Below, one piece after another: positions 17,244 to 63,032 of a stretch of DNA of 64,000 nt. The DNA comes from a virus. Each line of letters opens with the position of its first letter. The first letter of the stretch is position 1. The translations under genes were made by a program, and so were the position numbers. The stretch covers positions 33,609 through 97,608 of the IMG/VR virus record IMGVR_UViG_3300032251_000002; one strand, given 5' to 3'. The notes below the pieces were generated by a model that had not been told where the DNA came from, made no database searches, and worked only from the letters and a program-made list of their open reading frames with translations.

Positions 17244-17534
17244 TTATTGGTTGGCTTGTTGGTCTAAAAGTATAGTTAATAAATCATTTCTACACTTTGT
17301 AGCTAACTTATCTAATGATAAGTCTTTTCTTATGAGCAAGTCTCCGACAAATTGCAATGTTGAGTTAAGTTCAGTCTTTAGACTTGGGTCACTTAAACGA
17401 ATTATAAAGTAAGGACTAAAGTTGTTGTGATTAACTTCAACTCTTAATGACTCACTACCATAATCCTTCCTAAGTACTTGTTTAATTAAATCAATTTTTT
17501 CTTTTAATTGATTTGTCTTGTATTCTTCTATCAT
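17244..17534 (-). CDS. Small protein of the shared C-terminal-helix group
   Basis: Ends CRNDLLTILLD. Confidence 0.65.
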   Translation of the reverse strand: MIEEYKTNQLKEKIDLIKQVLRKDYGSESLRVEVNHNNFSPYFIIRLSDPSLKTELNSTLQFVGDLLIRKDLSLDKLATKCRNDLLTILLDQQANQ

Positions 17535-17914
17535 TTCAAAATCACTTCCATTAATTGTACTTTGATTTCTTGACGTATTTCAGCTTTAGTTTTATTTAAA
17601 GCATCATAAATTGAAACTCTACCTACTTTAACAAATGTAGGTTCATTCTTTGTTCGTAAACCATTATTCTTTTCTTGTCTACCATCTTTCCATTCACTAC
17701 CATAAAACCATTCTTCATACTCTTGCATTTCAATAGTACCTACTTGCATACTAATAACAGTCTTCTTTGTAGAATTATCATATGAGTGTGAAGGAAAATC
17801 TGCAGCCATACCATTCTCTTTCAACATAAATCTAATTACATTGATTCTTTTATGGACTTGACGTTGGTCTAATAAATATTTCTTTTTTCTTTTATTTATT
17901 TTTTTCTTACCCAT
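17531..17914 (-). CDS. Small protein of the C-terminal-helix group with terminase-like peptide
   Basis: Internal MQEYEEWFYGSEW; ends IKVQLMEVILK. Confidence 0.65.
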   Translation of the reverse strand: MGKKKINKRKKKYLLDQRQVHKRINVIRFMLKENGMAADFPSHSYDNSTKKTVISMQVGTIEMQEYEEWFYGSEWKDGRQEKNNGLRTKNEPTFVKVGRVSIYDALNKTKAEIRQEIKVQLMEVILK

Positions 17915-18404
17915 TATCTTCTACTCCTAACTCGTTGTCTAAAATTAAGTCAAATAATTTCATTTTACATAATTGTATGATATCATCTTTCTTAGAAAAT
18001 GATGCTCTAGTTAACTTAAATTCAGTTACTTTAGTCTCATCTTTTTTAAATGAAAATGAAGAATCTGGTGGATTTAAAAATGAAGCTGGTACACCCAATG
18101 CATTTGCCATTTGTTGATTGAAATTCTGTGTAAGTTTCTTAAAAGCTTCTTTACTATACACTCTTCCATTTCTATTAGGTTGGTTAGCAGGTTGAGACAT
18201 TACAGCAATACTATCAAGTACTACCATTTCAGGCTCTTTCTTTGGTTTTGGATATGCATAAAAAGTTATAGTATCATTATTAACTCTTGTAGAAGCACTT
18301 ACTCTAATATTATTCTCATTACAAAATTGCTTAACGATTTTAATCTTTTTAGCATAACATTTCTTATTAGAATTTGGTATACGTTTATTGTCTTTAGGAA
18401 ACAT
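17907..18404 (-). CDS. MFPK-family motif-mosaic protein 1
   Basis: Paralog of 18877..19392; insert has VVLDSIA, QPNRNGRVYSKE, ANALGVPASFL. Confidence 0.75.
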   Translation of the reverse strand: MFPKDNKRIPNSNKKCYAKKIKIVKQFCNENNIRVSASTRVNNDTITFYAYPKPKKEPEMVVLDSIAVMSQPANQPNRNGRVYSKEAFKKLTQNFNQQMANALGVPASFLNPPDSSFSFKKDETKVTEFKLTRASFSKKDDIIQLCKMKLFDLILDNELGVEDNG

Positions 18405-18412
18405 ATAACCTC

Positions 18413-18877
18413 CTATTCTTTTATTAAACCATACTTAATTAATAAATCCAATGACAATTGAGTTGCTTCAAATATCTCCATAGATTTCATTTCATTTAAA
18501 GAGAACCATCCTATCTCATCTACTTCTCCTTCAGCTGGAATAAGGTGACTTGAATCTTTAACTTGTACTGCAAAAGCATAATCATCATACTCACCATCAA
18601 AGTAGTTTCCAAGGAATGTACAAGCATATACTATAAGACCACACTCTTCAAGTACTTCTCTTATAATAGCTGCTCTAGGTGTTTCACCTACATCACATTT
18701 ACCACCCATTAATCCCCAACTACCAGCACCCTTTCTAGGTAAACCTTTAGAGTTTATTGCACTCCTTTTACCTAATAAATACTTTCCATTTCTTCTAATT
18801 ATTGCACATGTACCTATTTTTGTTTCTCCACCTTCATAGATAATTAAATCTTTACTTACATTTAATACTTGACTCAT
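18413..18877 (-). CDS. Nudix hydrolase
   Basis: Nudix box GGKCDVGETPRAAIIREVLEECG. Confidence 0.92.
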   Translation of the reverse strand: MSQVLNVSKDLIIYEGGETKIGTCAIIRRNGKYLLGKRSAINSKGLPRKGAGSWGLMGGKCDVGETPRAAIIREVLEECGLIVYACTFLGNYFDGEYDDYAFAVQVKDSSHLIPAEGEVDEIGWFSLNEMKSMEIFEATQLSLDLLIKYGLIKE

Positions 18878-19392
18878 TATATAACTCCTTCTATAGATAA
18901 CTCCATTATTCTAGATTTAAACATACTTAATATTTTCTTACGCTTTAACTCAGAAACATTCTGTATAACTATTTTATGTAGAACTTGTGATGTACTTCTA
19001 CCAAAGTTAAAAAGTTGCACATCATCTATAAAATCTCCATCAAAATCACCACCAGACAAACTTGCCCAATTTGGATATAATTTAGATACATCTGGCATAC
19101 TGAATTCATCAATTATAATAGTACCTAATTTACGACCATTAGACTTTTTATTCTCTTTTAAATTAAGTACAGTGCTATTTTTAGAGTACTTTAAACTGTT
19201 ACCACCAGGTATGAACTTAGGTTTAGTCTCTTTCTTCTTAAGTATTTTTACAACTATAGTATCTCCATCAATATTTATACTAGTAGTTACTCTCAACCCT
19301 TGAGACTTAGCAAACCCTTTCAGAGTACTGGCTTTATTCTTATATTCTTGCTCTTTACTACTAATCCTATTGTCAGTATTCTTTGGGAACAT
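18877..19392 (-). CDS. MFPK-family motif-mosaic protein 2
   Basis: Paralog of 17907..18404; insert has IPGGNSLKY, IIIDEFSM, GGDFDGD. Confidence 0.75.
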   Translation of the reverse strand: MFPKNTDNRISSKEQEYKNKASTLKGFAKSQGLRVTTSINIDGDTIVVKILKKKETKPKFIPGGNSLKYSKNSTVLNLKENKKSNGRKLGTIIIDEFSMPDVSKLYPNWASLSGGDFDGDFIDDVQLFNFGRSTSQVLHKIVIQNVSELKRKKILSMFKSRIMELSIEGVI

Positions 19393-19403
19393 ACTAAACC
19401 TCC

Positions 19404-19748
19404 TTATTTAATTTCAAGTTTATGTTTTTCTTTAAATGTTTTAAATGTACTAGCTTTTTCATTGAACTGATGAATTTTAATAAGAGCCTTCTCAATTATT
19501 TCCACCATTCTAGATTCTTCATTAACTGATGTAGATTGAATGACTGTAATTTGAACGTGGTCTTTAGTTAACAACTCATAAAGATATTCATTCTTTCCAC
19601 CTCTTAGTGTTGTTTTAAATATTACTTCTTTAAAATAATAATCATTATTTTCATGAGTAAATTTAATAATCTTATCATTATGTCTAATTACATACCCTAG
19701 AAATGTTGATGTCATTATATCTACAATTTTTTTATTTAAGTTGAACAT
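19404..19748 (-). CDS. Hypothetical protein
   Basis: 114 aa ORF with RBS. Confidence 0.6.
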   Translation of the reverse strand: MFNLNKKIVDIMTSTFLGYVIRHNDKIIKFTHENNDYYFKEVIFKTTLRGGKNEYLYELLTKDHVQITVIQSTSVNEESRMVEIIEKALIKIHQFNEKASTFKTFKEKHKLEIK

Positions 19749-19807
19749 ATACCTTTCCTTTCAAATTAAAATAGAGAAAGACTCAAAACGAGTCTTTCCC
19801 ATATTTA

Positions 19808-21772
19808 TTATTCATCTACTACTTCCATACCTATAGTTTTCATATAAATATCAAATATCATTTTAGTTCTACTTGACTCTCCTGTCTGTGGTATCTTCTC
19901 AAGGTTAAAGATATCATCAGTAAGTAAATGTTTAATTACTTCCTGTCTATCTTCTTGATTGATTGAATACTGTGACATAAGTCTTATTACATTCTTAATA
20001 TCATTAGTTAAGAATAAGTTAGTTAATTCCATCTCACCAATTCTTACAGGTGTCTTTGTATACAGAGATTGATGTAACTTAAATCTTGTAGACTTAGATG
20101 GAATGTTCTTTAAGTTAACATAACTAGAACTTCTAGCTGAGAACTTAGATTTTGGTTCATGTTTCAATTTTAAGAAGTATAAATCTCCCATGATAAGAGG
20201 TTGAATAATCTTCTTTCCTCCTACAGACATAGAATATGGTTTAAACTGTGGATACTTCTTATATAGTTCCCCTAATTGGTCAAAGGTTATATTATTGAAG
20301 AAAGGTGATTGATGTATGAATATACCATCTTCAAATATATCTTCCCAGAATTCAACAGTTTCATCTTCATCTAATTCATTATAATAATCTACCATGAAAT
20401 CATGTTGAACTTCATTTGCAGAGTTAATATAATCGAAGAACAGTTCAGTCATCTCATCAATACTTTCTTCAGTATTAATATCCCATAACTTTTTACATTC
20501 TCTCTGAATATTGTCAGATAAGAAGTTAATTTCTTGCTCATACATTTGAGAAGGATTAAGTCTGTTAATAATACCTAATGGATTAAGAACAACATCTGCT
20601 CTTTCACCAAATTCATTAACTGGCATTTCATCATCTGGTAGAATTAAAGATACACATCCTTTATTACCATATCTACCTGTTAATTTACTACCAATTACTA
20701 ATGGTTGCTCATACAATACTTTGAATTTAATAATTAAGTTATCAAAGTCAGAACCTTCATACTTCCAGTTAACATCTTCACTAATAATTTCTTTTGCTCT
20801 AGTATAGATATAACCAGCATCATCAGAGTAGTTTCCACCTTCAATAATAGGTTCTAATACTCTAACTATTTCTTCATAGTATGCTGTATTTTCTTGGTGA
20901 TACTTTAGTATCTGTGAATGATACATGTGTTTTTCTAATCTCTCATTAGTTGTATTACAGAATATATCTATATCAACTATAGTTCCTTTTGAGTAGAAAG
21001 GTGTGTCTGTAGAATAATTTACTTTCATTAAATTCTGAACTGAACCATCATAAAGTATACTATCGTAGTTAATTCTTCTTCTTGAGGAAACTATTGAATT
21101 AACAATATCTTCTCCAATATCTGGGAAACATTTGTAATTATCTTTATCTCCATACAGATTACATAACATGTCATTTGTATTTAGAGTGATAACTACGTCA
21201 TCAACTGTAAATGAAGATAAACGGTCTCTAGCAGATTCTGAAACCACTATTGCATCCTCATAAGTCATATTTTTCCAAGGAAGATATACTGATTTAAGAT
21301 TAAGACCAAAACCAAAGTTTAAATCTTTATCATAAGCAGTACTTCTAAAGATGACATCTTCATCAGCAATTCCATCACCAACTTCTTTACCTTTTAAGCC
21401 ATCATTCTCTAAAGTGTAACCATATCTTTCAGTTACTCTCTCACATGGCTTTTCATAGACTACGTCTACTAGTCCATTCTCATCTTGAAGTACAAATAGT
21501 GAATTCATTGCATTCTTATTAATCTTAGCAATAATATTCCAATCTCTATCCGACTTTCTATAAGATGAACTATATTTTCCTACCATGTTTTCAAAATTAG
21601 TAAATACTCTAGCTCGTTGAGTATCCTTTAATACTAATGATTGAACTACATGAGAGTCAAACATATTGGTTCTACTGGAATCAGTTTTATCTACATTGGG
21701 AATTAAGACTTCTTCTGCAAGAAAATCATGTTTATTATCAAACTTTCCAATGTCTACCACCTTTGTTTCCAT
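19808..21772 (-). CDS. Non-virion RNA polymerase beta subunit, C-terminal part (AR9 gp089-like)
   Basis: YEDAIVVSES, GSKLTGRYGNKG, NPLGIINRLNPSQ, YFLKLKH, RIGEME. Confidence 0.93.
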   Translation of the reverse strand: METKVVDIGKFDNKHDFLAEEVLIPNVDKTDSSRTNMFDSHVVQSLVLKDTQRARVFTNFENMVGKYSSSYRKSDRDWNIIAKINKNAMNSLFVLQDENGLVDVVYEKPCERVTERYGYTLENDGLKGKEVGDGIADEDVIFRSTAYDKDLNFGFGLNLKSVYLPWKNMTYEDAIVVSESARDRLSSFTVDDVVITLNTNDMLCNLYGDKDNYKCFPDIGEDIVNSIVSSRRRINYDSILYDGSVQNLMKVNYSTDTPFYSKGTIVDIDIFCNTTNERLEKHMYHSQILKYHQENTAYYEEIVRVLEPIIEGGNYSDDAGYIYTRAKEIISEDVNWKYEGSDFDNLIIKFKVLYEQPLVIGSKLTGRYGNKGCVSLILPDDEMPVNEFGERADVVLNPLGIINRLNPSQMYEQEINFLSDNIQRECKKLWDINTEESIDEMTELFFDYINSANEVQHDFMVDYYNELDEDETVEFWEDIFEDGIFIHQSPFFNNITFDQLGELYKKYPQFKPYSMSVGGKKIIQPLIMGDLYFLKLKHEPKSKFSARSSSYVNLKNIPSKSTRFKLHQSLYTKTPVRIGEMELTNLFLTNDIKNVIRLMSQYSINQEDRQEVIKHLLTDDIFNLEKIPQTGESSRTKMIFDIYMKTIGMEVVDE

Positions 21773-21802
21773 ACATTGCCCTCCTTATTTTGTATAAATT
21801 TT

Positions 21803-21826
21803 TGTCATAGCTATAATATATACTTA
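21803..21826 (-). promoter_or_regulatory. Early-type promoter
   Basis: TAAGTATATATTATAGCTATGACA upstream of nvRNAP beta-C. Confidence 0.7.
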
Positions 21827-21874
21827 TAAAATGAACTAGCTGAAAGGAGATAGTCTCCCTTCAGCCAATTTAAA

Positions 21875-29827: not shown

Positions 29828-30972
29828 TAGTAATTACTAAACAACGCTTCTAAGTCAATGTCTTCAGACTTAACTTCAGAATCATCATTACCACCAAAAA
29901 TAGATGGTTTAGTTTTCTTAACTTCTTTACGTTCTTCTTTAAACCAATCAATATTGACATCTTCATCATTAAATAAAGAAATCTTCTCTCTCTTCTTAAA
30001 CTTACCCTTAGCAGACTCAACACTATCCATAACTAATTTAAGTCTATCTTCTGGGAAACTTAAACCTGTAAGAATAGATACAATATAATTCTTATTGTCA
30101 TCTGCAGAATAATATCCTTCAAATGTTTCAATTGGTTGACCAATATTTTTATGGAAAATATCATAATCGATAAACTTAGTTGCTTCTTCTTGAAGTTCGA
30201 AGATATATCCACTTCTTTTAATTACTTTATCATACTGTAAAGAAGCAAATATACTTGAATTCCAAGATGAGTCTAATGCTTCTGCAATAGTTTCTGAATC
30301 ATTAATTTGATTCATAACAGTTACAGTTATTGACATACAGCCTGGAGTAAACATTAATTTAGATAAATCTTTACTATCCATATTACCATACTTACTTGAT
30401 TTTCTCTCTCTGTTATAAACAACATCTAATGATGCAATTACATGACTATTAACACCATTGTATAAATCAGCCTTAGACATTTTTGATTTATGTTCTTTGA
30501 ATTTCTCATTGTCTACAATTAGTGTAGGCACATCAATTGATGATAATTCTTCAAGACATTCATAAGTATTAAATTGAGCTACAGGAGTCTCACTTAATGC
30601 TGGAATTACTGCAATAGCTGCAAACTTCTTGTCTGGAATCATTTTAGTAAGCATGTCAATAATAATTGGAGACATACCTGACCCTGTTCCACCACCTGAA
30701 GAGAATGTAATGTAAATTATATCACAATCGTAAAACTTTGTTTTAACAAACTGAATGATGCTCTTGTAATGTGATTTAACTTCAGACTTACCAATAGCTC
30801 TGTCTTTACCACAACCACCTTGTTCACCTAATAATAACTTATTCTTAACTAAACTAATTGAATCTAAATCTTCTTGACTTGTATTCATTATTGCAGTAGT
30901 GTAACCTTTCTTGTCACCTAACTCAGCAATATTCGAACCACAAGCACCAATACCAAATATACCTACTTTCAT
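29827..30972 (-). CDS. Tubulin/FtsZ-family GTPase (TubZ/PhuZ-like)
   Basis: GIGACGSNI, GGCGKDR, signature SGGGTGSG, GNMDSKD (T7 loop), acidic C-terminal tail. Confidence 0.92.
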   Translation of the reverse strand: MKVGIFGIGACGSNIAELGDKKGYTTAIMNTSQEDLDSISLVKNKLLLGEQGGCGKDRAIGKSEVKSHYKSIIQFVKTKFYDCDIIYITFSSGGGTGSGMSPIIIDMLTKMIPDKKFAAIAVIPALSETPVAQFNTYECLEELSSIDVPTLIVDNEKFKEHKSKMSKADLYNGVNSHVIASLDVVYNRERKSSKYGNMDSKDLSKLMFTPGCMSITVTVMNQINDSETIAEALDSSWNSSIFASLQYDKVIKRSGYIFELQEEATKFIDYDIFHKNIGQPIETFEGYYSADDNKNYIVSILTGLSFPEDRLKLVMDSVESAKGKFKKREKISLFNDEDVNIDWFKEERKEVKKTKPSIFGGNDDSEVKSEDIDLEALFSNY

Positions 30973-30986
30973 TACTACTTCCTCCT

Positions 30987-31454
30987 TTATACTATTCCTT
31001 TTAATATTCCTTCTCTCATCTTAATTAAACGGCTACAATATTCATCTTGAGTTAATACAGTTTTCTTTGGATTAGTGCCACCAATAGTATGTACTATCTC
31101 ATGACCGACTGTATCAAGTAATGCATTTCTAACTCTTTCATTCTGAATTAACATTTCATAAAATGCTTGATTAAGTAAGTCTTGATATTCCTTTGAATCT
31201 CTTTGGTAAGCCTTACCTTTCCACCATAACTCTTGTTTTCTCCACCACTCAACACTTCTGCCAGCAGTTTTAGCCTTAGCACCGTTTAAAGAACATATAT
31301 GTCTTTGCATATTTTCATCTTCAAATTTAAGTGATTGAATGAATCCTTCCATACTTCCACAGTCAATACCGTCTATAGTAAAGAAATTTTTGTGTAAATT
31401 AGATAATAACTTGTATGGGTACTCTATAGTTATATTAATATCAAGAATACTCAT
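30987..31454 (-). CDS. NADAR-superfamily protein (T4 gp30.3-like)
   Basis: LSNL...F.IDG..CGSMEGFIQSLKF, AK..GR, LLDT...H, TVLT..EY. Confidence 0.7.
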   Translation of the reverse strand: MSILDINITIEYPYKLLSNLHKNFFTIDGIDCGSMEGFIQSLKFEDENMQRHICSLNGAKAKTAGRSVEWWRKQELWWKGKAYQRDSKEYQDLLNQAFYEMLIQNERVRNALLDTVGHEIVHTIGGTNPKKTVLTQDEYCSRLIKMREGILKGIV

Positions 31455-31977: not shown

Positions 31978-31978
31978 A

Positions 31979-32661: not shown

Positions 32662-34041
32662 CTAGGACTTATTTGTTAACATAAGTTCCATATTCAAAGT
32701 TCTCAGTTTAACATACTCATCTGGCACATCCCCCAACATGTCAATATTAAATATGTTATCTGTAACGTTAAAATCATATCTCTTTCTTACCTTAGCATAA
32801 CTTTTTATAAATGTACTATAAGTTTTAGAGTTACATTTATTAGCAGCTTTAAATAGACTTTTAACTAAATCATCTCTGTAATGTTTATCAGTCATCTGGA
32901 ACATAGAATGTTTTGATACTTTACTCTTAATTCTTCTATTTAATCCTAATGTCATAACTTGGTCAAAATTCTTATTAAATGTACTACTAACAAACTCATC
33001 CATTACACCTTCATTAACAATTATACTGTATTCTTTTGGATGCAATCTATCTAAATAGAATAAGAAATTAGTCCATCTAGATGTTATCTCATCAACATAT
33101 CCTGACTTAAGTATAAAAGAATCTACATATAAATCTCTACCATTAGTACTTAATCTTTTATAGATGTCTTTATTGACAAATATTTTCTTACATAATCTTT
33201 TAACCATTTCATCATCATAAGTGCAATTTGAAATGTATCCTCTTATACCAACTTCAGATGTTATTTTTTTAACTAAATACACATCAAAGTCTATTTTACT
33301 TTTAACTTCTTTTAAGAAATATGCCATGAATTTCTGTGGTATATTATCTAAAATCTTTTCCCGAAAGTCGGGTCTATTTCTAAATAACCTTACAGCATCA
33401 TTAAAATACCCTTTAGAATCAAACCTTTTTAAACATGATAATATTATATCTTGACAACCTGGTAAGTCTATAAGAAGTCTATAGTTATATAGTAAATCAT
33501 AAACTCCATCTTTATTTTTTAACATTAAATTTCTAAAATGTTCAGGGTCTTCTTCAAATACTTCAACTATACATTGAGATATATTTATATCATATAAGTT
33601 TATATCTATTTGGTCTCTTAAATCAGGTCTAAAAGCATATAGATATTGATATGCAGTTTCTCCTAAAAACTCTCTATCAGACTCAGTTATTTCATCTTCT
33701 ACAAAATTAGCATAAGCTAATGAATCAAAATATGTTGCCATAGTAATTTCTCTAAATTTTCTATATGAATGAATATCATCAATTTCAAAGAATATCCTTG
33801 GATAATCTTGTCTAGTTGAAATATGGTAATAATATACATACATATCCTCTTCAAAATCAAGAGCTTTACCAACTACAGTATTTAACATATGAGTACTATA
33901 TGTGCATATATAAGCATCATCTATATTTCCAGGAAGAACACTACTTCTACTTTTTTTAGTAGTTAAATTTTCCTTTAGCAATGGTACACTTGATAGTATA
34001 ATATTATTATATTCCTTTATTTCTATAATACGTTTAAACAT
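32662..34041 (-). CDS. Helical hypothetical protein with shared C-terminal helix
   Basis: 459 aa; ends LRTLNMELMLT; early promoter upstream. Confidence 0.7.
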   Translation of the reverse strand: MFKRIIEIKEYNNIILSSVPLLKENLTTKKSRSSVLPGNIDDAYICTYSTHMLNTVVGKALDFEEDMYVYYYHISTRQDYPRIFFEIDDIHSYRKFREITMATYFDSLAYANFVEDEITESDREFLGETAYQYLYAFRPDLRDQIDINLYDINISQCIVEVFEEDPEHFRNLMLKNKDGVYDLLYNYRLLIDLPGCQDIILSCLKRFDSKGYFNDAVRLFRNRPDFREKILDNIPQKFMAYFLKEVKSKIDFDVYLVKKITSEVGIRGYISNCTYDDEMVKRLCKKIFVNKDIYKRLSTNGRDLYVDSFILKSGYVDEITSRWTNFLFYLDRLHPKEYSIIVNEGVMDEFVSSTFNKNFDQVMTLGLNRRIKSKVSKHSMFQMTDKHYRDDLVKSLFKAANKCNSKTYSTFIKSYAKVRKRYDFNVTDNIFNIDMLGDVPDEYVKLRTLNMELMLTNKS

Positions 34042-34067: not shown

Positions 34068-34103
34068 TATCAAAGAAATAATATATGTTTAAACATATTA
34101 TTA
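34068..34103. promoter_or_regulatory. Back-to-back early (-) and late (+) promoters
   Basis: TAAACATATATTATTTCTTTGATA (-) abutting AACA-TATTAT-TA (+, 34092-34103). Confidence 0.65.
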
Positions 34104-35917: not shown

Positions 35918-37309
35918 TTATCTTCTAGAAGAGTTTTTGAAATTTAATTCTTTAACTTGACCATAAGGTTTTTCTTTAACTGATAAGTCTGATGCTTTAG
36001 TAGTTAATACCCATAATAATTTATATCCTTTTGGAGCTGGGTCAAGTATACGTTCACCACCACCATCTGTAAAGTAAATTGCAATATCAGTTTTAGGAAG
36101 GTTTTCATTGATATATTCAATAGCTGGACTAAATGCAGTACCACCTCTTCCCTTAACATTAAGTTTAATATCTTTCTCACTTTTAGCAGTGTAAACTCTA
36201 ACTACATCCATATCACAGTCAATGATATGTAATTGGAATTTAACATGACGAATAATTCCAAATATTTCACGGAAAATCCATTTTATTTCTTCATCACTAA
36301 CAGAACCAGAGGTATCTATTATAACTGTAATAATTACAGTTCTATCAGAAATACGACCTCTAATATCATATCTATTAGGTTGTCTTCTATCTCTACGTAA
36401 GATAGTTTTTCTATAAGGAATCTTAACACTTCCTAAGTAAAGTTTAAGAACTTTTTGCCAAGAGATTACTGGCTTTTCATTAAGTTTCTTTATAAGTGAT
36501 TCTATATGTCCTGGAACTTTACCACGAGATTTTTCAGCAGCTTCATTAGCGATATCTCTAACCATATCTTTCATGTCATCAATATTACCAACCTTGTCAG
36601 ACTCTCTCCAAACATCATGATTGTTAGTTGGTCCACTACTTAATTCATCACCCATTTCACCACTAGATTGACCATCATCTCCACTATCACTATTACCTTT
36701 AATACTACCTGAATCACTTTTATGATTGTTGTTACCTCTCATTTTGTTCAAGTTATTTTGAGCTTTAGGATTCTTGTGACATGCGTTGTTAATCAAGTCT
36801 ATATAGTACTCAGATTCTCTCTTAGCTTCAACGCTATTTATAAAGAAATCTTTCTCTAATGAATCTAAAGTTATGAATCCACTTCCAGTTTTTCCTAATG
36901 TTGGTAGATATTGATTTATTGACGCATCCATACCTATGTTACATGTAGTTCTATCATACTTAGTTACATACATTTTCTCTCTTAGTAAATGTAAATTAAG
37001 AATATGAAGACATTCATGTCTTAGAATATCTTTACTAATTTGTACTGAATACACTATGAAACGTGGCATGTTTAACCATAAATCAAAGTAAGTTCTATTC
37101 ATAGATACTCCAGCAGGTGCAGGAAATCTTAAATCATATCTTCTATTTAGTAATATTATTACATTTGCATAGAATGGGTCTTCCTTAAGTAAAGAGAATA
37201 TCAATAACTCAATATACTCTTTAAAGTTTTTATGTGCTTTCTTTATTTCACCAGCTTCTATCATTTTAATAATATTTTCTCTCATTTGGTGAATATTATC
37301 TTTAGCCAT
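35918..37309 (-). CDS. Metallopeptidase-like + VWA domain protein (DUF2201-type)
   Basis: HECLH, NIGMDASIN; MIDAS DTSGS; GRGGTAF; YFTDG. Confidence 0.88.
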   Translation of the reverse strand: MAKDNIHQMRENIIKMIEAGEIKKAHKNFKEYIELLIFSLLKEDPFYANVIILLNRRYDLRFPAPAGVSMNRTYFDLWLNMPRFIVYSVQISKDILRHECLHILNLHLLREKMYVTKYDRTTCNIGMDASINQYLPTLGKTGSGFITLDSLEKDFFINSVEAKRESEYYIDLINNACHKNPKAQNNLNKMRGNNNHKSDSGSIKGNSDSGDDGQSSGEMGDELSSGPTNNHDVWRESDKVGNIDDMKDMVRDIANEAAEKSRGKVPGHIESLIKKLNEKPVISWQKVLKLYLGSVKIPYRKTILRRDRRQPNRYDIRGRISDRTVIITVIIDTSGSVSDEEIKWIFREIFGIIRHVKFQLHIIDCDMDVVRVYTAKSEKDIKLNVKGRGGTAFSPAIEYINENLPKTDIAIYFTDGGGERILDPAPKGYKLLWVLTTKASDLSVKEKPYGQVKELNFKNSSRR

Positions 37310-37319: not shown

Positions 37320-38261
37320 CTATAATTCTACATCTATTGTCATTAGTACGTCAAACATTTCTTTTTTAAGTCTTTTATCTCCATGCTCTGAAACTGAACC
37401 TTCTAGATTAAATGTTTCTCTAATATCTTTAGATGAAACTAATGTTTTCAGTATCCTTCTAAGTTTAGACATTGGCATGGTATTCCAACATTGAACTAAG
37501 TTGTCCGAAATTAAAATACGAGTTTCTTTTTTAATATAATAATTTACATGTTTTATTACATCATCTTTTAATAATATTTTATTTACAAATATGGAAGTAC
37601 ATACTATATCTAATAGTAAATCAAAACAAATATTGTCAGCAACTTCCATACCCCATAATTCTATAGAACCCTCCACAAAATCAATAACAGTTACAAATAG
37701 TTCAGTTAATTCAGATATTGCAGTGTTTGAATTTTTAGAACCATCACTTCCTGTTAAACTTGTTAATCTTGATTTATATTGTATAGTGTAGCTTTTAAGT
37801 ATCTCAAAGTAATTACAATTTGGTACAGCCTTATATGTAACTGGTACTAGATTAACTCTAAACATATTATGATATCTTCCAATTAACATTCGGTCTATAG
37901 AACCTCTTAAGTGTGATTCAAAAGAATAATGACTATCTTTACTCTTTAAATAAGTATTTTTAAGAGTATTCTTTATGAATGAATAGTAATAATTTAATAC
38001 TTTTTTATTAGTTACAATTTGCTCTAATTTACCACTTATACTCCACTCACGTTCAGCTCGTTGCATATAACCTGTGTTCAATCTTGAATCAAGAAAATGT
38101 GTTAGTTCGTTACTCTTAAGTAATTCTTCAATCTCATCATCACTAAAAGTGCATACCAATCCTAAAACTCTTATTATAAATTCATCTTTATCAAAGTTAT
38201 TATCTTTAAATATAACATCTATATTTTGTATCATTGCTACAGCGTTCATTATTAACACCAC
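37320..38261 (-). CDS. Helical hypothetical protein with shared C-terminal helix
   Basis: Ends LKKEMFDVLMT; lies between MoxR and VWA genes. Confidence 0.65.
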   Translation of the reverse strand: MVLIMNAVAMIQNIDVIFKDNNFDKDEFIIRVLGLVCTFSDDEIEELLKSNELTHFLDSRLNTGYMQRAEREWSISGKLEQIVTNKKVLNYYYSFIKNTLKNTYLKSKDSHYSFESHLRGSIDRMLIGRYHNMFRVNLVPVTYKAVPNCNYFEILKSYTIQYKSRLTSLTGSDGSKNSNTAISELTELFVTVIDFVEGSIELWGMEVADNICFDLLLDIVCTSIFVNKILLKDDVIKHVNYYIKKETRILISDNLVQCWNTMPMSKLRRILKTLVSSKDIRETFNLEGSVSEHGDKRLKKEMFDVLMTIDVEL

Positions 38262-38266: not shown

Positions 38267-38761
38267 TTATTGTAGCATTTTCTCTAAATAAGATAATCTT
38301 ATATTTGGAAAGTTTTCATTATCCGTAAAATCATCAAAATTAAAGAAGTTGTTAAAAGCTTCAACTTGTCTAGAATAATAATTACTAGTATATTCTGAAT
38401 TATCATTTATGAAATCTCTAACTCTAAAATATTTTTTCAGTATAGAATTTCTAGAGATAGCTTTCATATTTTCTAATGAAGTTGCAAAACATAAAGCAAA
38501 GTCTTCTTTTAAAATATCTGATAAAGCATTAAAAGATTCCATTAATTCTTTATTTGGAGTAAAGAATGCTTGAGCTTGGGTTTTAGTTCTAATTTTTTCA
38601 ATAACGTTAAATAACAAATCTTCATCTACAATGAACTGACATTCTTCTTCATTTAATAAACTTAATAACTTAAAAATTGCCATCAATGTATATTGTAATG
38701 GTTGACCTTTTAAATCATCTTCAATATAAAGTACTCTGGGAAGTAATTCTTTAATATCCAT
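38267..38761 (-). CDS. Helical hypothetical protein with shared C-terminal helix
   Basis: Ends IRLSYLEKMLQ; N-terminus loosely resembles 37320 protein. Confidence 0.65.
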   Translation of the reverse strand: MDIKELLPRVLYIEDDLKGQPLQYTLMAIFKLLSLLNEEECQFIVDEDLLFNVIEKIRTKTQAQAFFTPNKELMESFNALSDILKEDFALCFATSLENMKAISRNSILKKYFRVRDFINDNSEYTSNYYSRQVEAFNNFFNFDDFTDNENFPNIRLSYLEKMLQ

Positions 38762-39399: not shown

Positions 39400-40530
39400 T
39401 TACACACTTCTAAGTCTTTTATTAGTATCATAGAATAAATCTAAGTACTCTGTTACTGCTGATAATTTCTTGTGAAGATTTTTATGGTTATGCATAATAT
39501 TTGCAATTACTGAAACCATTGTATCTTTAGGAATATTATCACAGAAAGTAATAAAGTTCTCAATATCAACTTTGTCATTCTTTTTAGAGCCATCATCAAG
39601 ATAGTTAATTAACTTCTTAACTGTTACTGTAAGTCTAGGAATAGACTCACCTGAGATACGGTGAACCATATTATCACTTAATCTTGAACCACAGAAGATT
39701 TCATCAACTCTAATTAGAGGATTGGTCTTAGTTTCCAAATGTCTCATAAATGCTGTTGCTGGAATACGACCAATATCTGAACGAACAAGTTCACTTAATA
39801 TACCATCATCAAAATTAAATTCTTCAATGAATGTAGTATATTTTTTAGAAACTGATTCCCAAGAACGTGGTGTTGGTTTAATCTTTTCAGTAGATGCTGG
39901 AATATGCAACATATCAATGTTAGATGATATGAACTCAACTATATCATTATGAATACCATTATCCATTGCCCAAGCTAACCAATCTTCTACATCTACAGTT
40001 AAATTATAGAAGGAGAATCTATCTATAAGAGCTGCATTCATAGTATTAACTTGATAGTCATTGTCATCATCAGCTTCTGGATTTCCAGCAGCTATAATAG
40101 AACAATCACCAATAGGTAATTCAGCAGTGTTAATAACTTTATCAAGAATAAGTTGCATTAATTCCTGCTGTACTGCTAACTCTGAACGATTAAGTTCATC
40201 AATGAATAAAATTACATGATAACCTTCTGCTACTAAATCTTGAATCTGCTTAATCTTCCAATACAATGTATATGTATTAATATGGTTTCCTTCATTGTCC
40301 TCTACAGGAATTGGGATACCACCAAGTTCACCTTCTTTAAGAACTGAACCAAATATTGTTACATGTGTAAATTTCATACCATCTTTAGCATATCTTTCAT
40401 TTAACTTTTTACACATCATTTTTGGAAAGTTTGATTTACCAATACCAGCATGTCCTTCAATATAGGCAATCTTTGCTGACTCAGAATTAATGTGTACGTC
40501 TACAACATTTTCTAACATAGTATACTTCAT
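39400..40530 (-). CDS. MoxR-like AAA+ ATPase
   Basis: GHAGIGKS, LFIDELNR, AAGNP, ALIDRF, TPRSW. Confidence 0.9.
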   Translation of the reverse strand: MKYTMLENVVDVHINSESAKIAYIEGHAGIGKSNFPKMMCKKLNERYAKDGMKFTHVTIFGSVLKEGELGGIPIPVEDNEGNHINTYTLYWKIKQIQDLVAEGYHVILFIDELNRSELAVQQELMQLILDKVINTAELPIGDCSIIAAGNPEADDDNDYQVNTMNAALIDRFSFYNLTVDVEDWLAWAMDNGIHNDIVEFISSNIDMLHIPASTEKIKPTPRSWESVSKKYTTFIEEFNFDDGILSELVRSDIGRIPATAFMRHLETKTNPLIRVDEIFCGSRLSDNMVHRISGESIPRLTVTVKKLINYLDDGSKKNDKVDIENFITFCDNIPKDTMVSVIANIMHNHKNLHKKLSAVTEYLDLFYDTNKRLRSV

Positions 40531-40571: not shown

Positions 40572-40595
40572 TGTCAATAGTATAATATATATTTA
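40572..40595 (-). promoter_or_regulatory. Early-type promoter
   Basis: TAAATATATATTATACTATTGACA upstream of MoxR. Confidence 0.65.
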
Positions 40596-45296: not shown

Positions 45297-45332
45297 TAAT
45301 TATTTCCTCCATTTCAATGATATAATATATAC

Positions 45333-45659
45333 TTATTTTACGTGGTACTCTTTTTCCTCATCAAAATTGTCTGGCATAAATACTCCATTAGCAATAGCTT
45401 GAAGAATAGACTGTGAGTACTGTTCTTGTAAGAAAGCACCTATACCAATAAGGATTGTAATCATTGCAACTCTAGGATTTTCATATTGAGACTTGTCAGT
45501 TGTGAACTTGTCAAACTTGTAAAGTTCTGGTAAATCTGTTAAGTTTCCTTCAAGTCTATAATAAACTAATTGCTTATTGAAAATGAAATTATGTTGTATC
45601 CACTCTTCTACTTCTTTAATATTATTAGCTTCGAACATTTGTTTCCTCCTATATTCCAC
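45333..45659 (-). CDS. Hypothetical protein
   Basis: ORF within operon. Confidence 0.55.
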   Translation of the reverse strand: MEYRRKQMFEANNIKEVEEWIQHNFIFNKQLVYYRLEGNLTDLPELYKFDKFTTDKSQYENPRVAMITILIGIGAFLQEQYSQSILQAIANGVFMPDNFDEEKEYHVK

Positions 45660-49466: not shown

Positions 49467-49520
49467 TGTCATCACTATAATATATATTTGAAAATAATCT
49501 TAACTATACATATAATTGTT
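49467..49520 (-). promoter_or_regulatory. Early-type and late-type promoters upstream of gyrB
   Basis: CAAATATATATTATAGTGATGACA (49467-49490); AACA-ATTATA-TG (49509-49520). Confidence 0.6.
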
Positions 49521-56346: not shown

Positions 56347-56370
56347 TGTCACAGTTATAATATATACTTA
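56347..56370 (-). promoter_or_regulatory. Early-type promoter
   Basis: TAAGTATATATTATAACTGTGACA. Confidence 0.65.
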
Positions 56371-57367: not shown

Positions 57368-57378
57368 AGGAGAAAGAT

Positions 57379-57957: not shown

Positions 57958-58115
57958 TAATTAAGACAAAAGACGATAAGACATATTTTTCTGTATGGGT
58001 CAGTGAGTGTAATCATACAGAATTAACTATACTCTGTAAAAAAGGAAATCAACTGAGTTTAGAGACAATTAAAAGAGATAATATCGTTACTCCACCAGAG
58101 TTTAAAAAACAATAA
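57954..58115 (+). CDS. Small hypothetical protein (53 aa)
   Basis: ATGA overlap with upstream stop; MIIKTKDDKTYFSVW... Confidence 0.5.
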   Translation: MIIKTKDDKTYFSVWVSECNHTELTILCKKGNQLSLETIKRDNIVTPPEFKKQ

Positions 58116-58129
58116 AGGAGGATTAAACA

Positions 58130-58606: not shown

Positions 58607-58611
58607 AAAAA

Positions 58612-58643
58612 AAGAGACTATATCTTAATTGATATAGTCTCTT
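58612..58643. terminator. Bidirectional terminator
   Basis: AAGAGACTATATC-TTAATT-GATATAGTCTCTT. Confidence 0.8.
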
Positions 58644-58645
58644 TA

Positions 58646-60289
58646 TTAATCTTCATCCTCATCAAAATCTGCTAGGACTGTTTTCTTGCCAGCTTTCTTA
58701 CGTTTCTTACCAGTTGTTAAAGGTTTACTACCACCATTAGTTGTATCATATTCAGCTAATCCATCACCTAAATCTAATAATGATAAAGATTTTGCTAAAT
58801 TATAATCTGGTTTAAGTTTCATACCATTTTCAAATGGATGTGCAAAGTAATGTAAATCTTGTTTCTTTGCTCTAGATTTTACTAATTTATAAGTTAAGAA
58901 ATCTACATCAGTTGTTGTTTGTTTTTCTTTATTGATAATGATTACATAATCTGAGTTATCAATCAATCTTACAGACTCACCTACATGAGAAATACCTAAC
59001 TGTTTAACTATGTTGTTTTTCCCTTTTTCAAGAGCAGCTTCAATTACTTGGAATGCAGTTCTATTCAACTGCGAAGCTGAAACAACAGGAATGTCTCTGT
59101 CTTTTGCTATAACTGTGAAGTCATCACATACAGCACCCAACTCTAAATACATCTCAGCATGTTTTTCAGAACTATTAATACGCTTTAAATAATCATGCAG
59201 TAACATTACTACTTCATAACCATCTAGAGCCATATCATCAATCATTCCATCAACATCTGCAGTACTTATTGACTTATTAGGTCTGTATTTAATTTCTAAT
59301 GGAACTCCCTCATTGAATCCATTTTCACATAACATTTTCATTACAGTTGCAGCATCATTTTGTATGAAAGGAATATCTTCACCAATATAATGAGACCATA
59401 ATCTATTAAGTGTTTCATCTTGAGAGTTCTCTTGAGATACATACAGAATACAGGGTTTCTTAGTTGGGTCTTTTGTAACCCATTCAGTATTACAATGTTT
59501 AGCATCCAAAGCTGCTTGAATAAGCTGACCAGATTTCCATCCACCTGGAGCTCCCAAGTAAAGATAGAATCTTTGACATTCATAACCACCATTTAACATC
59601 TTGTTTAAGTTCTTAACTGATGTCTGGACTTTGTTATTAGGTCTACTAAAGTTTTTATGTGCTATATTGATTGCATCTTCAAGTCTACTATCATTTGAGT
59701 TAAAATCTCTGGCAGTATACTTATTAGGTGCTTTAGCTTTTTGTAACTTCTTATGAAGTGATTTAACTACTGTTGAATACTCTTCGGCAAATTCACCAAG
59801 ACTTTCGTAATCACCAGATTTAAATCTCATTGCAAGATTATCTAGTTCAACTTGTTCTTTATATAAAAACGAGAACTTCATCTTATCACTAATGTATTCT
59901 TCAATATAACCTACTGTTTCGTTGTCAATATCATCATCATAAGTTTCAGATATATATTCAACTAAATCATCAATCTCATCTTCATACTTACCCCCACCTT
60001 TTGTAAAGGATACAATTCTTTCATGGTCATTCATTCTTTTCTTAACCATTGCAGTTAAAGACTTCTTTAAGAAGTGAAAGCGTACTTCCATTTCTCTATC
60101 AGTTTCATATGAAGATGAATCTATCATTTCAAGTAATTCTAACAACTTTAACTTTGAACGTCTTGTTATGATAATGTTTTCACTATAAGTGTATATAATT
60201 AAGTCATCTAGCTCGTTGATACTTATTTCTATTGGTACTTTATCGTTTTCAGCGTAAGCATGTCTACCTGATTTTTTTGTTATTGCCAA
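58646..60289 (-). CDS. Replicative DnaB-like helicase
   Basis: GAPGGWKS, SQEN, HDYL, SASQLNR; late-type promoter 60323-60334. Confidence 0.88.
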   Translation of the reverse strand: MAITKKSGRHAYAENDKVPIEISINELDDLIIYTYSENIIITRRSKLKLLELLEMIDSSSYETDREMEVRFHFLKKSLTAMVKKRMNDHERIVSFTKGGGKYEDEIDDLVEYISETYDDDIDNETVGYIEEYISDKMKFSFLYKEQVELDNLAMRFKSGDYESLGEFAEEYSTVVKSLHKKLQKAKAPNKYTARDFNSNDSRLEDAINIAHKNFSRPNNKVQTSVKNLNKMLNGGYECQRFYLYLGAPGGWKSGQLIQAALDAKHCNTEWVTKDPTKKPCILYVSQENSQDETLNRLWSHYIGEDIPFIQNDAATVMKMLCENGFNEGVPLEIKYRPNKSISTADVDGMIDDMALDGYEVVMLLHDYLKRINSSEKHAEMYLELGAVCDDFTVIAKDRDIPVVSASQLNRTAFQVIEAALEKGKNNIVKQLGISHVGESVRLIDNSDYVIIINKEKQTTTDVDFLTYKLVKSRAKKQDLHYFAHPFENGMKLKPDYNLAKSLSLLDLGDGLAEYDTTNGGSKPLTTGKKRKKAGKKTVLADFDEDED

Positions 60290-60337
60290 TATTCATAGCC
60301 CTCCTTACTTATTACTATCTCTTATTATGATGTTATC

Positions 60338-60511
60338 TTATGCGTTTTGATTGTAAAAAGTGCTTATTTCATAGTCTAAATTAACTAATACATCTAATAC
60401 TTCATCATAAGTAGAACAACCTACTTTACTTGGATAATCCAATCCATCTTCATATTTCATTCTTTCCTTGTATAAATCTGACAAGGAAAATAATTTTGCA
60501 TCAGTTTCCAT
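60338..60511 (-). CDS. Small hypothetical protein (57 aa)
   Basis: METDAKLFSL...; GGAGG RBS; below track cutoff. Confidence 0.5.
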   Translation of the reverse strand: METDAKLFSLSDLYKERMKYEDGLDYPSKVGCSTYDEVLDVLVNLDYEISTFYNQNA

Positions 60512-60527
60512 TAATATCCCTCCAATA

Positions 60528-61082
60528 TCATTTCAATGATAGTTCCATAAGTACTTTTTGTAACTTAGTACTTCCATACTTATGAACATGAAACTCTAAA
60601 CTACTAAACCATACAGATAAATTGTTATTTGGAGTACCATATGGTTTAAAGTGGTTGAAAAATCTCTTCTGAACATTAAGAGAATATTCATGTATATTGT
60701 CACAGAAGTTTTTAATTAAAGCATTCATAACACAATCAACAACTTGAGGTTCAAAATAAGTCATTAATATTCCAGAGTCTAGATTATTACCAGAGAATAC
60801 TTTAGGTATTAAGTATTCTATAACTAAAGGATGAAACATCTCTTCAGTCTCATTAACTCGTTTAACTTCTTTTATACCTGCATAAGTTAAATAATCTAAT
60901 AAAGCAGTTATAAAACTCTTAGGAGATACAGAACCCTTACCAGATTGAGTATCTAGAAAATATGCAGTTTTAACTACTGCCATAAATGGTGTAAATTCAT
61001 TATCTTTGTTTCTAAAAGTGTGTAAGTGACTTAATTTAGTTTTCTTTGAGTAATCATTCTCAGCATCAATTCTTGCAGCCAT
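60528..61082 (-). CDS. Hypothetical protein with shared C-terminal helix
   Basis: Ends LQKVLMELSLK. Confidence 0.65.
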   Translation of the reverse strand: MAARIDAENDYSKKTKLSHLHTFRNKDNEFTPFMAVVKTAYFLDTQSGKGSVSPKSFITALLDYLTYAGIKEVKRVNETEEMFHPLVIEYLIPKVFSGNNLDSGILMTYFEPQVVDCVMNALIKNFCDNIHEYSLNVQKRFFNHFKPYGTPNNNLSVWFSSLEFHVHKYGSTKLQKVLMELSLK

Positions 61083-61092
61083 GTTTATTCTC

Positions 61093-61569
61093 CTATTCTA
61101 TTCTTAATATATTTTCCATCCATATTCTTCGGATGTTTGAATACTCTTTAACTTTAGTTAATCTATCTTCAAAATAGTCTTTAAACAATTTATATTGTTT
61201 ATCCTTATAAGTTAAAGAATTGTATAATGTTCTTAAATTACATTCCATATCATTCTCATTATTTTTAAGAAGTCTATGCAGTGTTCCTTTAACATATATA
61301 CCTGTGACATTACTCATTGTATGGTAATTATAACATTCTGAATTCACAGAAGTAAAACCATCTATAAAACTCCTTGTAGTGCCGAAGTCTATCTCATTAA
61401 TCATTTCTTCATGAGAAACTTTCAATAATGTTGAACATGGTAATTCTGATAACATACTTGTGAAGATATCAAATTTTGTAACGTACGTTACACCAAACGT
61501 ATCTTCTTGATTTTTCTCTATTAGTTTACTAGCACTATACATTGATTTAAATTCTTCCAAGCTTATCAA
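61093..61569 (-). CDS. Hypothetical protein with shared C-terminal helix
   Basis: Ends IRRIWMENILR. Confidence 0.65.
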   Translation of the reverse strand: MISLEEFKSMYSASKLIEKNQEDTFGVTYVTKFDIFTSMLSELPCSTLLKVSHEEMINEIDFGTTRSFIDGFTSVNSECYNYHTMSNVTGIYVKGTLHRLLKNNENDMECNLRTLYNSLTYKDKQYKLFKDYFEDRLTKVKEYSNIRRIWMENILRIE

Positions 61570-62089
61570 AATCTACGTCTCCTTTCAATAATATCTCCAT
61601 TACAGTTTTATCTATAATTTGTGTGTAGTCAGCTCTATGTTTCTTTAGATATTTTTGTATAGAATCAATTATTGGTAGATTACCTACTCTAATAATATCA
61701 TCAAAACATTTAATTGCTTTAAGGTCTTTTCTAAACTCATTTCTAAGAGTATGATGTACGTTTTTCCCTTCAGCAATAGACTTTAAAGGTTTTATTAAAT
61801 TTAAAACGCATCCCTCAATTAGATAATCAAACAACTCTCTCTTATCATTAATAAGTTCATCTATATCATAAATATGATAAAATCTTTTATCTACTCCACC
61901 TTGAATTAACTCATGTAAATGTAGAAATGGAAATACATATTCATCTAATAATACTTTCCCATCAAAAGGTTCATCCAAGTTAATCATAAATTCAACCAAT
62001 CTTTCAGTTACAGTAAATTCAGATGATTCTTCACTAAAAGTATTTTCTATCATATTCAACATTGCATACATTTGGTCGCTAGTCATCAT
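61547..62089 (-). CDS. Hypothetical protein with shared C-terminal helix
   Basis: IDKTVMEILLK near C-terminus. Confidence 0.65.
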   Translation of the reverse strand: MMTSDQMYAMLNMIENTFSEESSEFTVTERLVEFMINLDEPFDGKVLLDEYVFPFLHLHELIQGGVDKRFYHIYDIDELINDKRELFDYLIEGCVLNLIKPLKSIAEGKNVHHTLRNEFRKDLKAIKCFDDIIRVGNLPIIDSIQKYLKKHRADYTQIIDKTVMEILLKGDVDFDKLGRI

Positions 62090-62427
62090 TGTATACCACC
62101 ACCTAACGAATAATTCATAAGTGCTTTTTTAAAGTTATTAGTAAGTGTAAGTAAATCTAAATGATGACCAAAGTTATTATACATATATTCAGAAATTTTA
62201 TCATAACTATCATTGTCTGAGACCAAAAAGTAATACTTAGGAGTTATATTTACTGTAATATTGTGCAATGGTTTAATACCAAAACTTCTTTTATGTTTTT
62301 CCCAAGTTACTAATTCAAACCCTAATTTTCGACATATATCGTGTAGTATATTTATTTGATTATTTAAATCTACATGACTTTGTTCTCTAAAATCACGTCC
62401 TATTTTTCTTACATCCATATATTTCAT
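62086..62427 (-). CDS. Hypothetical protein with shared C-terminal helix
   Basis: Ends FKKALMNYSLG. Confidence 0.65.
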   Translation of the reverse strand: MKYMDVRKIGRDFREQSHVDLNNQINILHDICRKLGFELVTWEKHKRSFGIKPLHNITVNITPKYYFLVSDNDSYDKISEYMYNNFGHHLDLLTLTNNFKKALMNYSLGGGIQ

Positions 62428-62750
62428 TAATTCCCCAACTCACTTTCCATATAATCAAGAAATATTATTTCTTTTAATTTATCTCTTTCATATTCATTAT
62501 AAGATATAATGCCTGATTTCATAAATGAGTACTTACTTATACGTAAACCATATAAAGTGTAATCATTTGGACCACATCCAATAGTATATCCATTGTCAAG
62601 TTTAATAGTTATACATTTACCCGATTTTTGAGATTTCAAAGAACTTCTATCAAACCTTTCTAAAAGTATATCATACATATACTCATATTTTTCTTGAACT
62701 ATATCATCTACAGGAAAAGTAAATTTGTTGTACTTCAGTAATTCACTCAT
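62427..62750 (-). CDS. Hypothetical protein with shared C-terminal helix
   Basis: Ends IFLDYMESELG. Confidence 0.6.
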   Translation of the reverse strand: MSELLKYNKFTFPVDDIVQEKYEYMYDILLERFDRSSLKSQKSGKCITIKLDNGYTIGCGPNDYTLYGLRISKYSFMKSGIISYNEYERDKLKEIIFLDYMESELGN

Positions 62751-62759
62751 ATTTCCTCC

Positions 62760-63032
62760 TTAAATTAAAACATGGAGTAACTTTTCTCTAAGCCATCCAA
62801 CTAATATACTATCTTTAGTATCAAAATTATAATATCCATTATTATGAAATAAGTTTGTTGAACCATTATAAATATACAATACATATCTATCAGTGTTAGT
62901 GCATTTAATATACGCAATTTTACCTATGTATATTGTATACGGGTCAGCAAGGAATCCATTTTTAAGAGATACACTTTCAATATATCTATCAATTAAGTCA
63001 ACTATTTTTTGTTGAGCTACCTGTATAGTCAT
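62760..63032 (-). CDS. Hypothetical protein with shared C-terminal helix
   Basis: Ends LREKLLHVLI. Confidence 0.6.
   Translation of the reverse strand: MTIQVAQQKIVDLIDRYIESVSLKNGFLADPYTIYIGKIAYIKCTNTDRYVLYIYNGSTNLFHNNGYYNFDTKDSILVGWLREKLLHVLI

Follow-up and report, generated by a model that had tools for sequence, protein, structure and literature searches.

A recurrent, putatively helical C-terminal motif on otherwise dissimilar proteins of an uncultured AR9-like jumbo phage

Introduction

Why should a set of otherwise dissimilar accessory proteins, encoded at several places along one phage genome, end in what looks like the same short helix? We addressed this question in a 64,000-nucleotide stretch of viral DNA (the window), which comprises bases 33609-97608 of the 97.6-kb IMG/VR virus contig IMGVR_UViG_3300032251_000002 (CheckV completeness 38%). 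An initial annotation of the window, made without database searches, had listed about 13 proteins that share an amphipathic C-terminal helix, had described it by the pattern h-[KR]-x-x-h-[MLF]-[ED]-x-x-[LIM] (h, hydrophobic) and had proposed that it docks them onto a single hub. We refer to this element as the tag and to the proteins that carry it as tagged. Genes are named by their window coordinates, and negative coordinates lie in the 33.6 kb of the contig upstream of the window, which the annotation had not seen.

To judge by its genes, the contig (29% GC) comes from an uncultured jumbo phage of the AR9/PBS1 type. Its multisubunit RNA polymerase (RNAP) has a beta subunit whose C-terminal half (19808-21772) is 42% identical to AR9 gp088, followed in the ranking of matches by PBS1, Staphylococcus S6-like phages and Yersinia phiR1-37. 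In literature searches we found no jumbo phage, AR9-like or other, for which such a tag has been described. Here we show that the tag is enriched at the C-termini of this phage's proteins, and we weigh a tentative docking role for it against other explanations.

Results

The tag is enriched at protein C-termini

All 13 peptides quoted in the initial annotation were located on minus-strand open reading frames (ORFs) at or near the C-terminus, lying -1 to 11 residues before the stop codon. We ran the annotation's pattern on the 131 ORFs called along the full contig, scoring a match that starts in the last 25 residues as a tail match and the remainder as internal. Tails yielded 10 matches in 3275 positions and internal segments 3 in 27024, a 24-fold rate ratio (Fisher p = 4.5e-8). 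Because the pattern had been fitted to tails inside the window, this full-contig test is partly circular, and the upstream region provides the fair test. In those 33.6 kb, which are out of sample, 4 of 925 tail positions match against 2 of 9449 internal positions (Fisher p = 8e-4), and the proposed enrichment over internal positions is upheld in both comparisons.

We also built a position-specific scoring matrix (PSSM) from the 13 seeds and took the 95th percentile of internal windows as threshold. Of the 35 upstream tails, 6 scored higher than this, compared with 1.75 expected; with AR9 the same matrix placed 12 of 265 tails above threshold (13.25 expected), which is the chance level. The order of the positions matters, as 300 position-permuted versions of the pattern gave on average 0.38 tail matches and 2.1 internal matches, and none of the 300 reached 10. 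The pattern showed no enrichment in AR9 (318 ORFs of the same composition; no tail match and one internal match) or in nine helicase-anchored loci of more distant relatives (helicase identity of at most 41%; one tail match in ~220 ORFs). A de novo search of AR9 C-termini for a different tag recovered only the RIWDCGN[LM]VF tail of three large paralogs, probable homing endonucleases (ORF ends at ~118698, 147327 and 222079). The motif did not reach significance in a BLOSUM neighbourhood test with a single seed. We conclude that the enrichment is genuine and that what carries it is a few-position pattern rather than overall similarity.

The membership of the set is larger than first described. 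Every one of the 13 listed proteins was found, but the total is ~20-22, and to the three clusters of the annotation a fourth is added upstream of the window, where six of seven further members form an array around the gene for the N-terminal half of a split family-B DNA polymerase (PolB). Twelve members are 90-120 aa long. The C-terminus of RNAP beta (KMIFDIYMKTIGMEVVDE) was considered as a member and rejected, being the ancestral beta C-terminal helix, of which AR9 gp088 has the equivalent.

The tag is maintained at the protein level

Alignment of 20 tags gives the consensus [LIF]-[KR]-x-x-h-[M>L,F]-[E>D]-h-x-[L>M,I], with a polar stretch before it and 0-11 variable residues after it. Position 1 is L, I or F in 16 of the 20 tags, and K or R occupies position 2 in the same number; position 6 is Met in 13/20 and L or F otherwise, position 7 is acidic (E/D) in 16/20 and position 10 is L, M or I in 19/20. 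The Met preference, the near-invariant acidic residue and the conservation of the tag in orthologs (below) point to a tighter and more specific constraint on the last helix than on the rest of these proteins.

The description of the helix as amphipathic turned out to be loose, since the hydrophobic moment of the tags equals background (0.93, versus 0.93 for random 11-mers). Net charge ranges from -3 to +2 and is centred on 0. The 12 residues preceding the tag are enriched in polar residues (fraction 0.667 versus 0.581 in random 12-mers, p = 0.002) and are not conserved between members.

Synonymous codons in the 20 tags are used as they are genome-wide (141 preferred codons observed versus 147.6 expected), and the Leu and Arg codons are varied. 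This ordinary codon choice indicates that the motif is kept at the protein level, and it rules out a DNA-level signal, such as a promoter, as the source of the motif. The Shine-Dalgarno sequence (SD) of the following gene was also considered. Where that gene overlaps, the G-rich residues after the tag (GGIL, GGLL, GGGIQ and EGVI) are indeed its SD, but the SD mostly lies after the stop codon and explains only these residues. The distance from the motif to the next start codon is variable as well, and we reject a nucleic-acid signal in gene 3' ends, whether SD, promoter or recombination linker, as having next to no probability.

Tagged proteins have little else in common

Searches of Pfam and PHROGs with the 13 tagged ORFs returned nothing above threshold. 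In an all-versus-all BLAST comparison, the only related pairs were 17907 and 18877 (E 4e-5) and -3180 and -2770 (E 2e-9). With the last 22-24 residues removed, Smith-Waterman z scores averaged 0.15 between tagged proteins, compared with 0.12 between tagged and untagged and 0.19 between untagged proteins. One pair stood out, 17907 and 18877 (z 8.3); two others reached z 3.7-4.2, which is about as frequent as in controls. Hidden Markov model (HMM) iteration on the tail-removed proteins found nothing further. Paralogy of 38267 and 37320 looked plausible by eye, but hhalign of the two ortholog-backed families gives a probability of 0.5% and does not support it. With the one clear exception of 17907 and 18877, the tagged proteins are as dissimilar outside the tag as the initial annotation had held.

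The paralogs 17907 and 18877 have MFPK and the N-terminal ~61 aa in common, their middles are unrelated, and both carry the tag. In the second pair, -3180 and -2770 (137 and 127 aa), the motif is internal (VKAKFLEYSL and LKAKYMEYEL, respectively), ~40 residues before the C-terminus.

AlphaFold models were made without an alignment; a MAFFT alignment of 13 small members was too poor as folding input. For 62760 (90 aa) the model has a helix at residues 3-24, four strands and a helix at residues 76-88, at low confidence (predicted local distance difference test (pLDDT) 48); for 60528 (184 aa) it has nine helices, the last at residues 172-182, also at low confidence (pLDDT 55). At least two secondary-structure classes, alpha/beta and all-alpha, seem to carry the same ending. 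The notion of a constant C-terminal helix on variable bodies is borne out to the extent that body similarity does not rise above controls and that these two low-confidence folds differ in class. The models are too poor for a comparison of folds, and searches with them gave only noise-level matches (best YkuJ, Z 5.3; BFVD E > 0.7), ESM Atlas gave weak leads only (its model of 17244 is low-confidence, pLDDT 0.54), and a PDB sequence search with the two ortholog-backed profiles returned nothing significant.

Orthologs of two tagged proteins retain the tag

An exhaustive HMMER search with 37320 against 1.84 billion representatives found a sole relative (P0123, 30% identity). It is encoded on a 2.8-kb metagenomic contig (L030) that carries orthologs of 38267 (34% identity), 37320 and the DUF2201 VWA protein in the same order as here. 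Both orthologs keep the tag: that of 37320 has GDKRIKKLMFD and ends in GDKRIKKLMFDSFMKDFETEDED, and that of 38267 ends in NFPRLRQAYVEQLLKSH. The ortholog evidence consists of these two pairs, both on L030. In the 37320 pair, the tag block is one of the three best conserved among the listed non-overlapping windows; in the 38267 pair, the pre-tag linker ranks first and the tag itself sixth. Searches for further relatives found no match by tblastn against phage records (32662 and 37320), only the query proteins themselves in a word-based homolog search (18877 and 32662) and nothing in IMG/VR scans with RNAP beta, P0123 and an alignment designated A4.

Tagged genes form tandem arrays, most of them behind early-type promoter motifs

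Tagged genes lie in four tandem arrays and form 11 adjacent pairs, compared with 2.9 expected (p < 5e-5). Tags from one array resemble each other no more than tags from different arrays do (permutation p = 0.43), which fits a shared constraint better than recent copying.

The early-promoter consensus of AR9 is AAATATATATTAT-(6N)-G (PMC5312081). The 13-nt consensus AAA[TCG]ATATATTAT-(6N)-G is retained in this distant AR9 relative, whose RNAP identity is 42%. Sites occur in intergenic gaps on the coding strand and, in two cases, at gene edges (Table 1), and they start gene runs headed by nvRNAP beta, MoxR, gyrA and gyrB. By these predicted promoters, three of the arrays and the singleton 32662 lie in same-strand runs behind early-type promoter motifs and adjoin genes of early function, the promoter-preceded arrays being next to the nvRNAP beta, split PolB and MoxR genes. 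No early promoter was found for cluster 3, the array upstream of the DnaB-like helicase gene (58646-60289), for which one may lie beyond the contig end.

The two PolB half-genes are on opposite strands, ~10.5 kb apart: the N-terminal (exonuclease) gene is at L016:12892-14712 (-), with tagged ORFans on either side of it, and the C-terminal (polymerase) gene is at L016:417-2348 (+).

The initial annotation had also placed two tagged genes between those for a MoxR-like AAA ATPase and a VWA-metallopeptidase, and this arrangement is confirmed, the latter being a DUF2201 protein. Four genes are inserted there in all (39094, 38765, 38267 and 37320). In AR9, the MoxR and VWA genes are adjacent (NC_031039, 21947-23062 and 23264-24574), and the tagged genes between them are therefore lineage-specific insertions.

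Discussion

A tentative docking role and its alternatives

We favour, at a little under even confidence, the reading that the helix is a lineage-specific docking or assembly interface on fast-evolving early proteins. Many of these proteins would dock through the common helix onto one putative phage or host partner, with the variable bodies supplying individual activities; alternatively, tagged proteins may bundle with one another through the helix. Of the wider proposals in the initial annotation (an adaptor family, a single hub, MoxR/VWA or host Clp as that hub, and a bait-and-dispose anti-defence platform), none drew support from the analyses. Several observations weigh against a docking role. 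When a crude de novo motif finder was given the C-terminal 24 residues of all proteins, the identical motif came out on top, but only 2-3 standard deviations above internal-segment controls, and four members (17244, 62086, 62760 and -17270) are weak matches. The hydrophobic positions (1, 5, 6, 8, 9 and 10) account for over half of the helix surface, which fits a helix buried in its own domain. The internal motif of -3180 and -2770 means that the tag is not a strictly terminal label. Both structural models are of low confidence, so the two folds can be said to differ only in secondary-structure class. Finally, the tandem arrays, the similar sizes and the two clear paralog pairs fit descent from one family.

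Such descent is the core of an alternative that we consider unlikely on balance but serious, in which one or two hyper-diverged paralog families arose by tandem duplication and the C-terminal helix is the best-preserved element of a common small fold (N-terminal helix, beta-meander, C-terminal helix). It would account for adjacency beyond chance, for the narrow length range of 12 members, for the demonstrable paralogy of two pairs and for the internal motif in one of them; the 62760 model (pLDDT 48) has the topology H-E-E-E-(E)-H, and by eye many small members begin with a similar helix ending in G-h and followed by strands. It sits poorly with the lack of body similarity above controls after tail removal (BLAST, HMM, Smith-Waterman and hhalign together find just the two paralog pairs) and with six members of 158-459 aa that look all-alpha and not alpha/beta (one modelled, the rest by eye). 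A purely structural helix would also accept L, I or F at the position where Met prevails, and the equal likeness of tags within and between arrays is a further point against this descent. Chance or composition, by which the tags would be no more than the generic hydrophobic helices at the C-termini of an AT-rich proteome, selected by eye, is already disfavoured and retains little probability. The BLOSUM result, the narrow lead of the de novo finder, the weakness of several listed members and one tail match (-9167) among late tail genes speak for it, but the enrichment holds out of sample with both pattern and PSSM, permuted patterns never reach the observed count, AR9 shows nothing at the same composition, orthologs conserve the tag and the genes are strongly clustered.

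Two more specific roles can be set beside docking in general. The metal ion-dependent adhesion sites (MIDAS) of VWA and integrin I-domains bind acidic ligand residues, and the tag might be a recognition element or degron read by the phage MoxR/DUF2201 VWA-metallopeptidase, with a possible MIDAS contact to its acidic residue, or by a host Clp ATPase. The DUF2201 protein keeps HExxH and a complete MIDAS, the near-invariant E/D is flanked by hydrophobic residues, two tagged genes sit between MoxR and VWA, and the order of the tagged pair and VWA is kept in a second phage. AR9, however, has the adjacent MoxR-VWA pair and 0 tagged proteins, so the tag does not track the pair; most tagged genes are distant from it, and the spacing to the C-terminus is variable, unlike that of ssrA-like Clp degrons. 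We consider this role improbable. Equally slim is the chance of a capsid-targeting or packaging signal like the T4 capsid-targeting sequence (CTS), by which diverse small proteins would enter the head and be injected along with the DNA, and the h-M-E core would double as a prohead-protease site of the [LI]-x-E type. In T4, the internal proteins IPI-III and Alt carry a common 10-residue targeting peptide on divergent bodies, and Alt undergoes C-terminal processing as well; the CTS is N-terminal, is removed by the prohead protease and belongs to late virion proteins (PMC9026906). Like the CTS, the tag would be a portable address of ~10 residues, shared by accessory proteins of a large phage that are small, diverge fast and are otherwise dissimilar, and the genomic logic agrees with such a signal. 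Its core h-[ML]-E resembles the [LI]-x-E site, and next after cluster 1 comes a gene for a virion structural protein (16674-17231). In contrast to the CTS, the tag is found among the final 25 residues (or, in two paralogs, ~40 before the end), and its genes lie behind early-type promoters in the company of replication and transcription genes, although this is not decisive. The acidic residue is in the middle of the peptide, so that a cut there would divide the signal in two rather than free the protein of it.

The docking reading has a broader form, which we regard as doubtful: jumbo or huge phages may repeatedly evolve lineage-specific C-terminal 'address' helices that plug turning-over early effectors into one conserved hub. 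About 1 protein in 6 would be addressed in this way here, with the MoxR/VWA pair (MIDAS and near-invariant Glu) or a host machine as the candidate hub, which would make it a modular effector-docking system without a described precedent in phages. If one hub reads ~20 early proteins, host takeover in this phage lineage would have a control point there, and the tag would serve as a sequence marker for effector genes in related metagenomic phages. Most giant-phage early genes are ORFans without an experimental handle, and a short, transplantable common peptide would offer a direct one. Should the tag be the remnant of one paralog family, it would still mark a large lineage-specific expansion of early genes.

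Comparison with known terminal motifs

In T4-type phages, sliding-clamp-binding tails such as LDFLF occur at the gp43 C-terminus and in a ligase loop (PMC6212786). They are short hydrophobic-acidic-hydrophobic motifs, often C-terminal, that can bind as a helix and bring several proteins to one hub, and the tag core [MLF]-[ED]-h-x-[LIM] resembles L-D-F-L-F. The C-terminal half of PolB (genome 417-2348), however, ends in ...SKNYYSNVINF, which does not match the pattern, and ~20 ORFan clients are far more than are known for any clamp. Neither PF02916 nor PF00712 (gp45-like and DnaN-like clamps) has a match in the 38%-complete contig or in AR9; the phage might rely on a host clamp.

Encapsulation peptides of bacterial microcompartments (BMCs) share a hydrophobicity pattern and not fixed residues, and they are strongly amphipathic (PMC4594438). 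They consist of a short terminal helix joined by a polar, poorly conserved linker to unrelated cargo, sometimes with a short hydrophilic tail, and they serve one shell partner; a polar, non-conserved lead-in before the predicted helix is likewise present here. The tag differs in keeping specific residues (K/R, Met and Glu) and in having a hydrophobic moment no higher than that of random 11-mers; the BMC helix is 15-20 residues long. The BMC shell family PF00936 has no match in the contig (38% complete) or in AR9.

A Clp-type degron appears unlikely, because such a degron is read at the free C-terminus while the spacing of the tag to the C-terminus varies. Unlike degrons of the ssrA type for ClpXP or tail-specific protease, the tag is followed by 0-11 non-conserved residues, and by ~40 in two paralogs. 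It also differs from membrane-targeting helices of the MinD/FtsA type in its background-level moment, in a net charge around 0 and not positive, and in its conserved acidic residue.

Features of the contig

Table 1. Tagged genes, neighbouring genes and early-type promoter sites, in window coordinates
Feature	Coordinates	Strand	Length (aa)	Tag	Tag position (nt)	Remarks
Tagged ORFan, cluster 1	17244..17534	-	96	CRNDLLTILLD	17262-17294	Tag followed by 5 residues
Tagged ORFan, cluster 1	17531..17914	-	127	IKVQLMEVILK	17534-17566	Tag at extreme C-terminus
Tagged ORFan, cluster 1	17907..18404	-	165	CKMKLFDLILD	17937-17969	Paralog of 18877
NUDIX hydrolase, within cluster 1	18413..18877	-				phrog_1198, E 4e-17; not counted as tagged
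Tagged ORFan, cluster 1	18877..19392	-	171	FKSRIMELSIE	18889-18921	Paralog of 17907
Tagged ORFan, singleton	32662..34041	-	459	LRTLNMELMLT	32674-32706	
DUF2201 protein	35918..37309	-				Putative zinc metallopeptidase (HECLH) and VWA domain, intact MIDAS (DTSGS..T..TDG)
Tagged ORFan, cluster 2	37320..38261	-	309-313	LKKEMFDVLMT	37338-37370	Between MoxR and VWA
Tagged ORFan, cluster 2	38267..38761	-	164	IRLSYLEKMLQ	38270-38302	
MoxR-like AAA+ ATPase (AAA_5)	39400..40530	-				
Tagged ORFan, cluster 3	60528..61082	-	184	LQKVLMELSLK	60531-60563	Predicted all-alpha
Tagged ORFan, cluster 3	61093..61569	-	158	IRRIWMENILR	61102-61134	
Tagged ORFan, cluster 3	61547..62089	-	180	IDKTVMEILLK	61583-61615	Tag followed by 11 residues
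Tagged ORFan, cluster 3	62086..62427	-	113	FKKALMNYSLG	62101-62133	Weaker tag; GGGIQ after it is the SD of the overlapping next gene
Tagged ORFan, cluster 3	62427..62750	-	107	IFLDYMESELG	62433-62465	
Tagged ORFan, cluster 3	62760..63032	-	90	LREKLLHVLI	62763-62792	Weaker tag; predicted alpha-beta-beta-beta-(beta)-alpha
Paralog pair -3180/-2770	-3180..-2387	+				Genome 30428-31221 (L017:10428-11221); directly behind early-type promoter
Promoter site	-16903					Intergenic, coding strand; array around PolB N-terminal gene begins right after
Promoter site	5005-5017					Intergenic, coding strand
Promoter site	8264-8276					Intergenic, coding strand
Promoter site	15541-15553					Gene edge
Promoter site	21813-21825	-				Intergenic, coding strand; AAGTATATATTAT-6N-G; upstream of nvRNAP beta gene, cluster 1 downstream in same-strand run
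Promoter site	34078-34090	-				Intergenic, coding strand; immediately upstream of singleton 32662
Promoter site	40582-40594	-				Intergenic, coding strand; MoxR-like gene first after it
Promoter site	45322-45334	-				Gene edge
Promoter site	49477-49489	-				Intergenic, coding strand
Promoter site	56357-56369	-				Intergenic, coding strand

Other genes recognised on the contig include gyrA, gyrB, NrdD, an NAD-dependent ligase, UvsX, a DnaB-like helicase, the MoxR-like ATPase and the DUF2201 protein, and 5' of the window lie the split PolB, tail sheath, large terminase and major head protein genes. The NUDIX hydrolase within cluster 1 has a degenerate tag-like tail (QLSLDLLIKYGLIKE), which also resembles the bacterial clamp-binding QLSLF motif. 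Just downstream of the major head protein gene, a 195-aa protein is encoded on the minus strand (genome 32982-33569, window -627..-40); its first ~110 residues are extremely acidic (D/E/T-rich), and it may be a scaffold or head-core protein.

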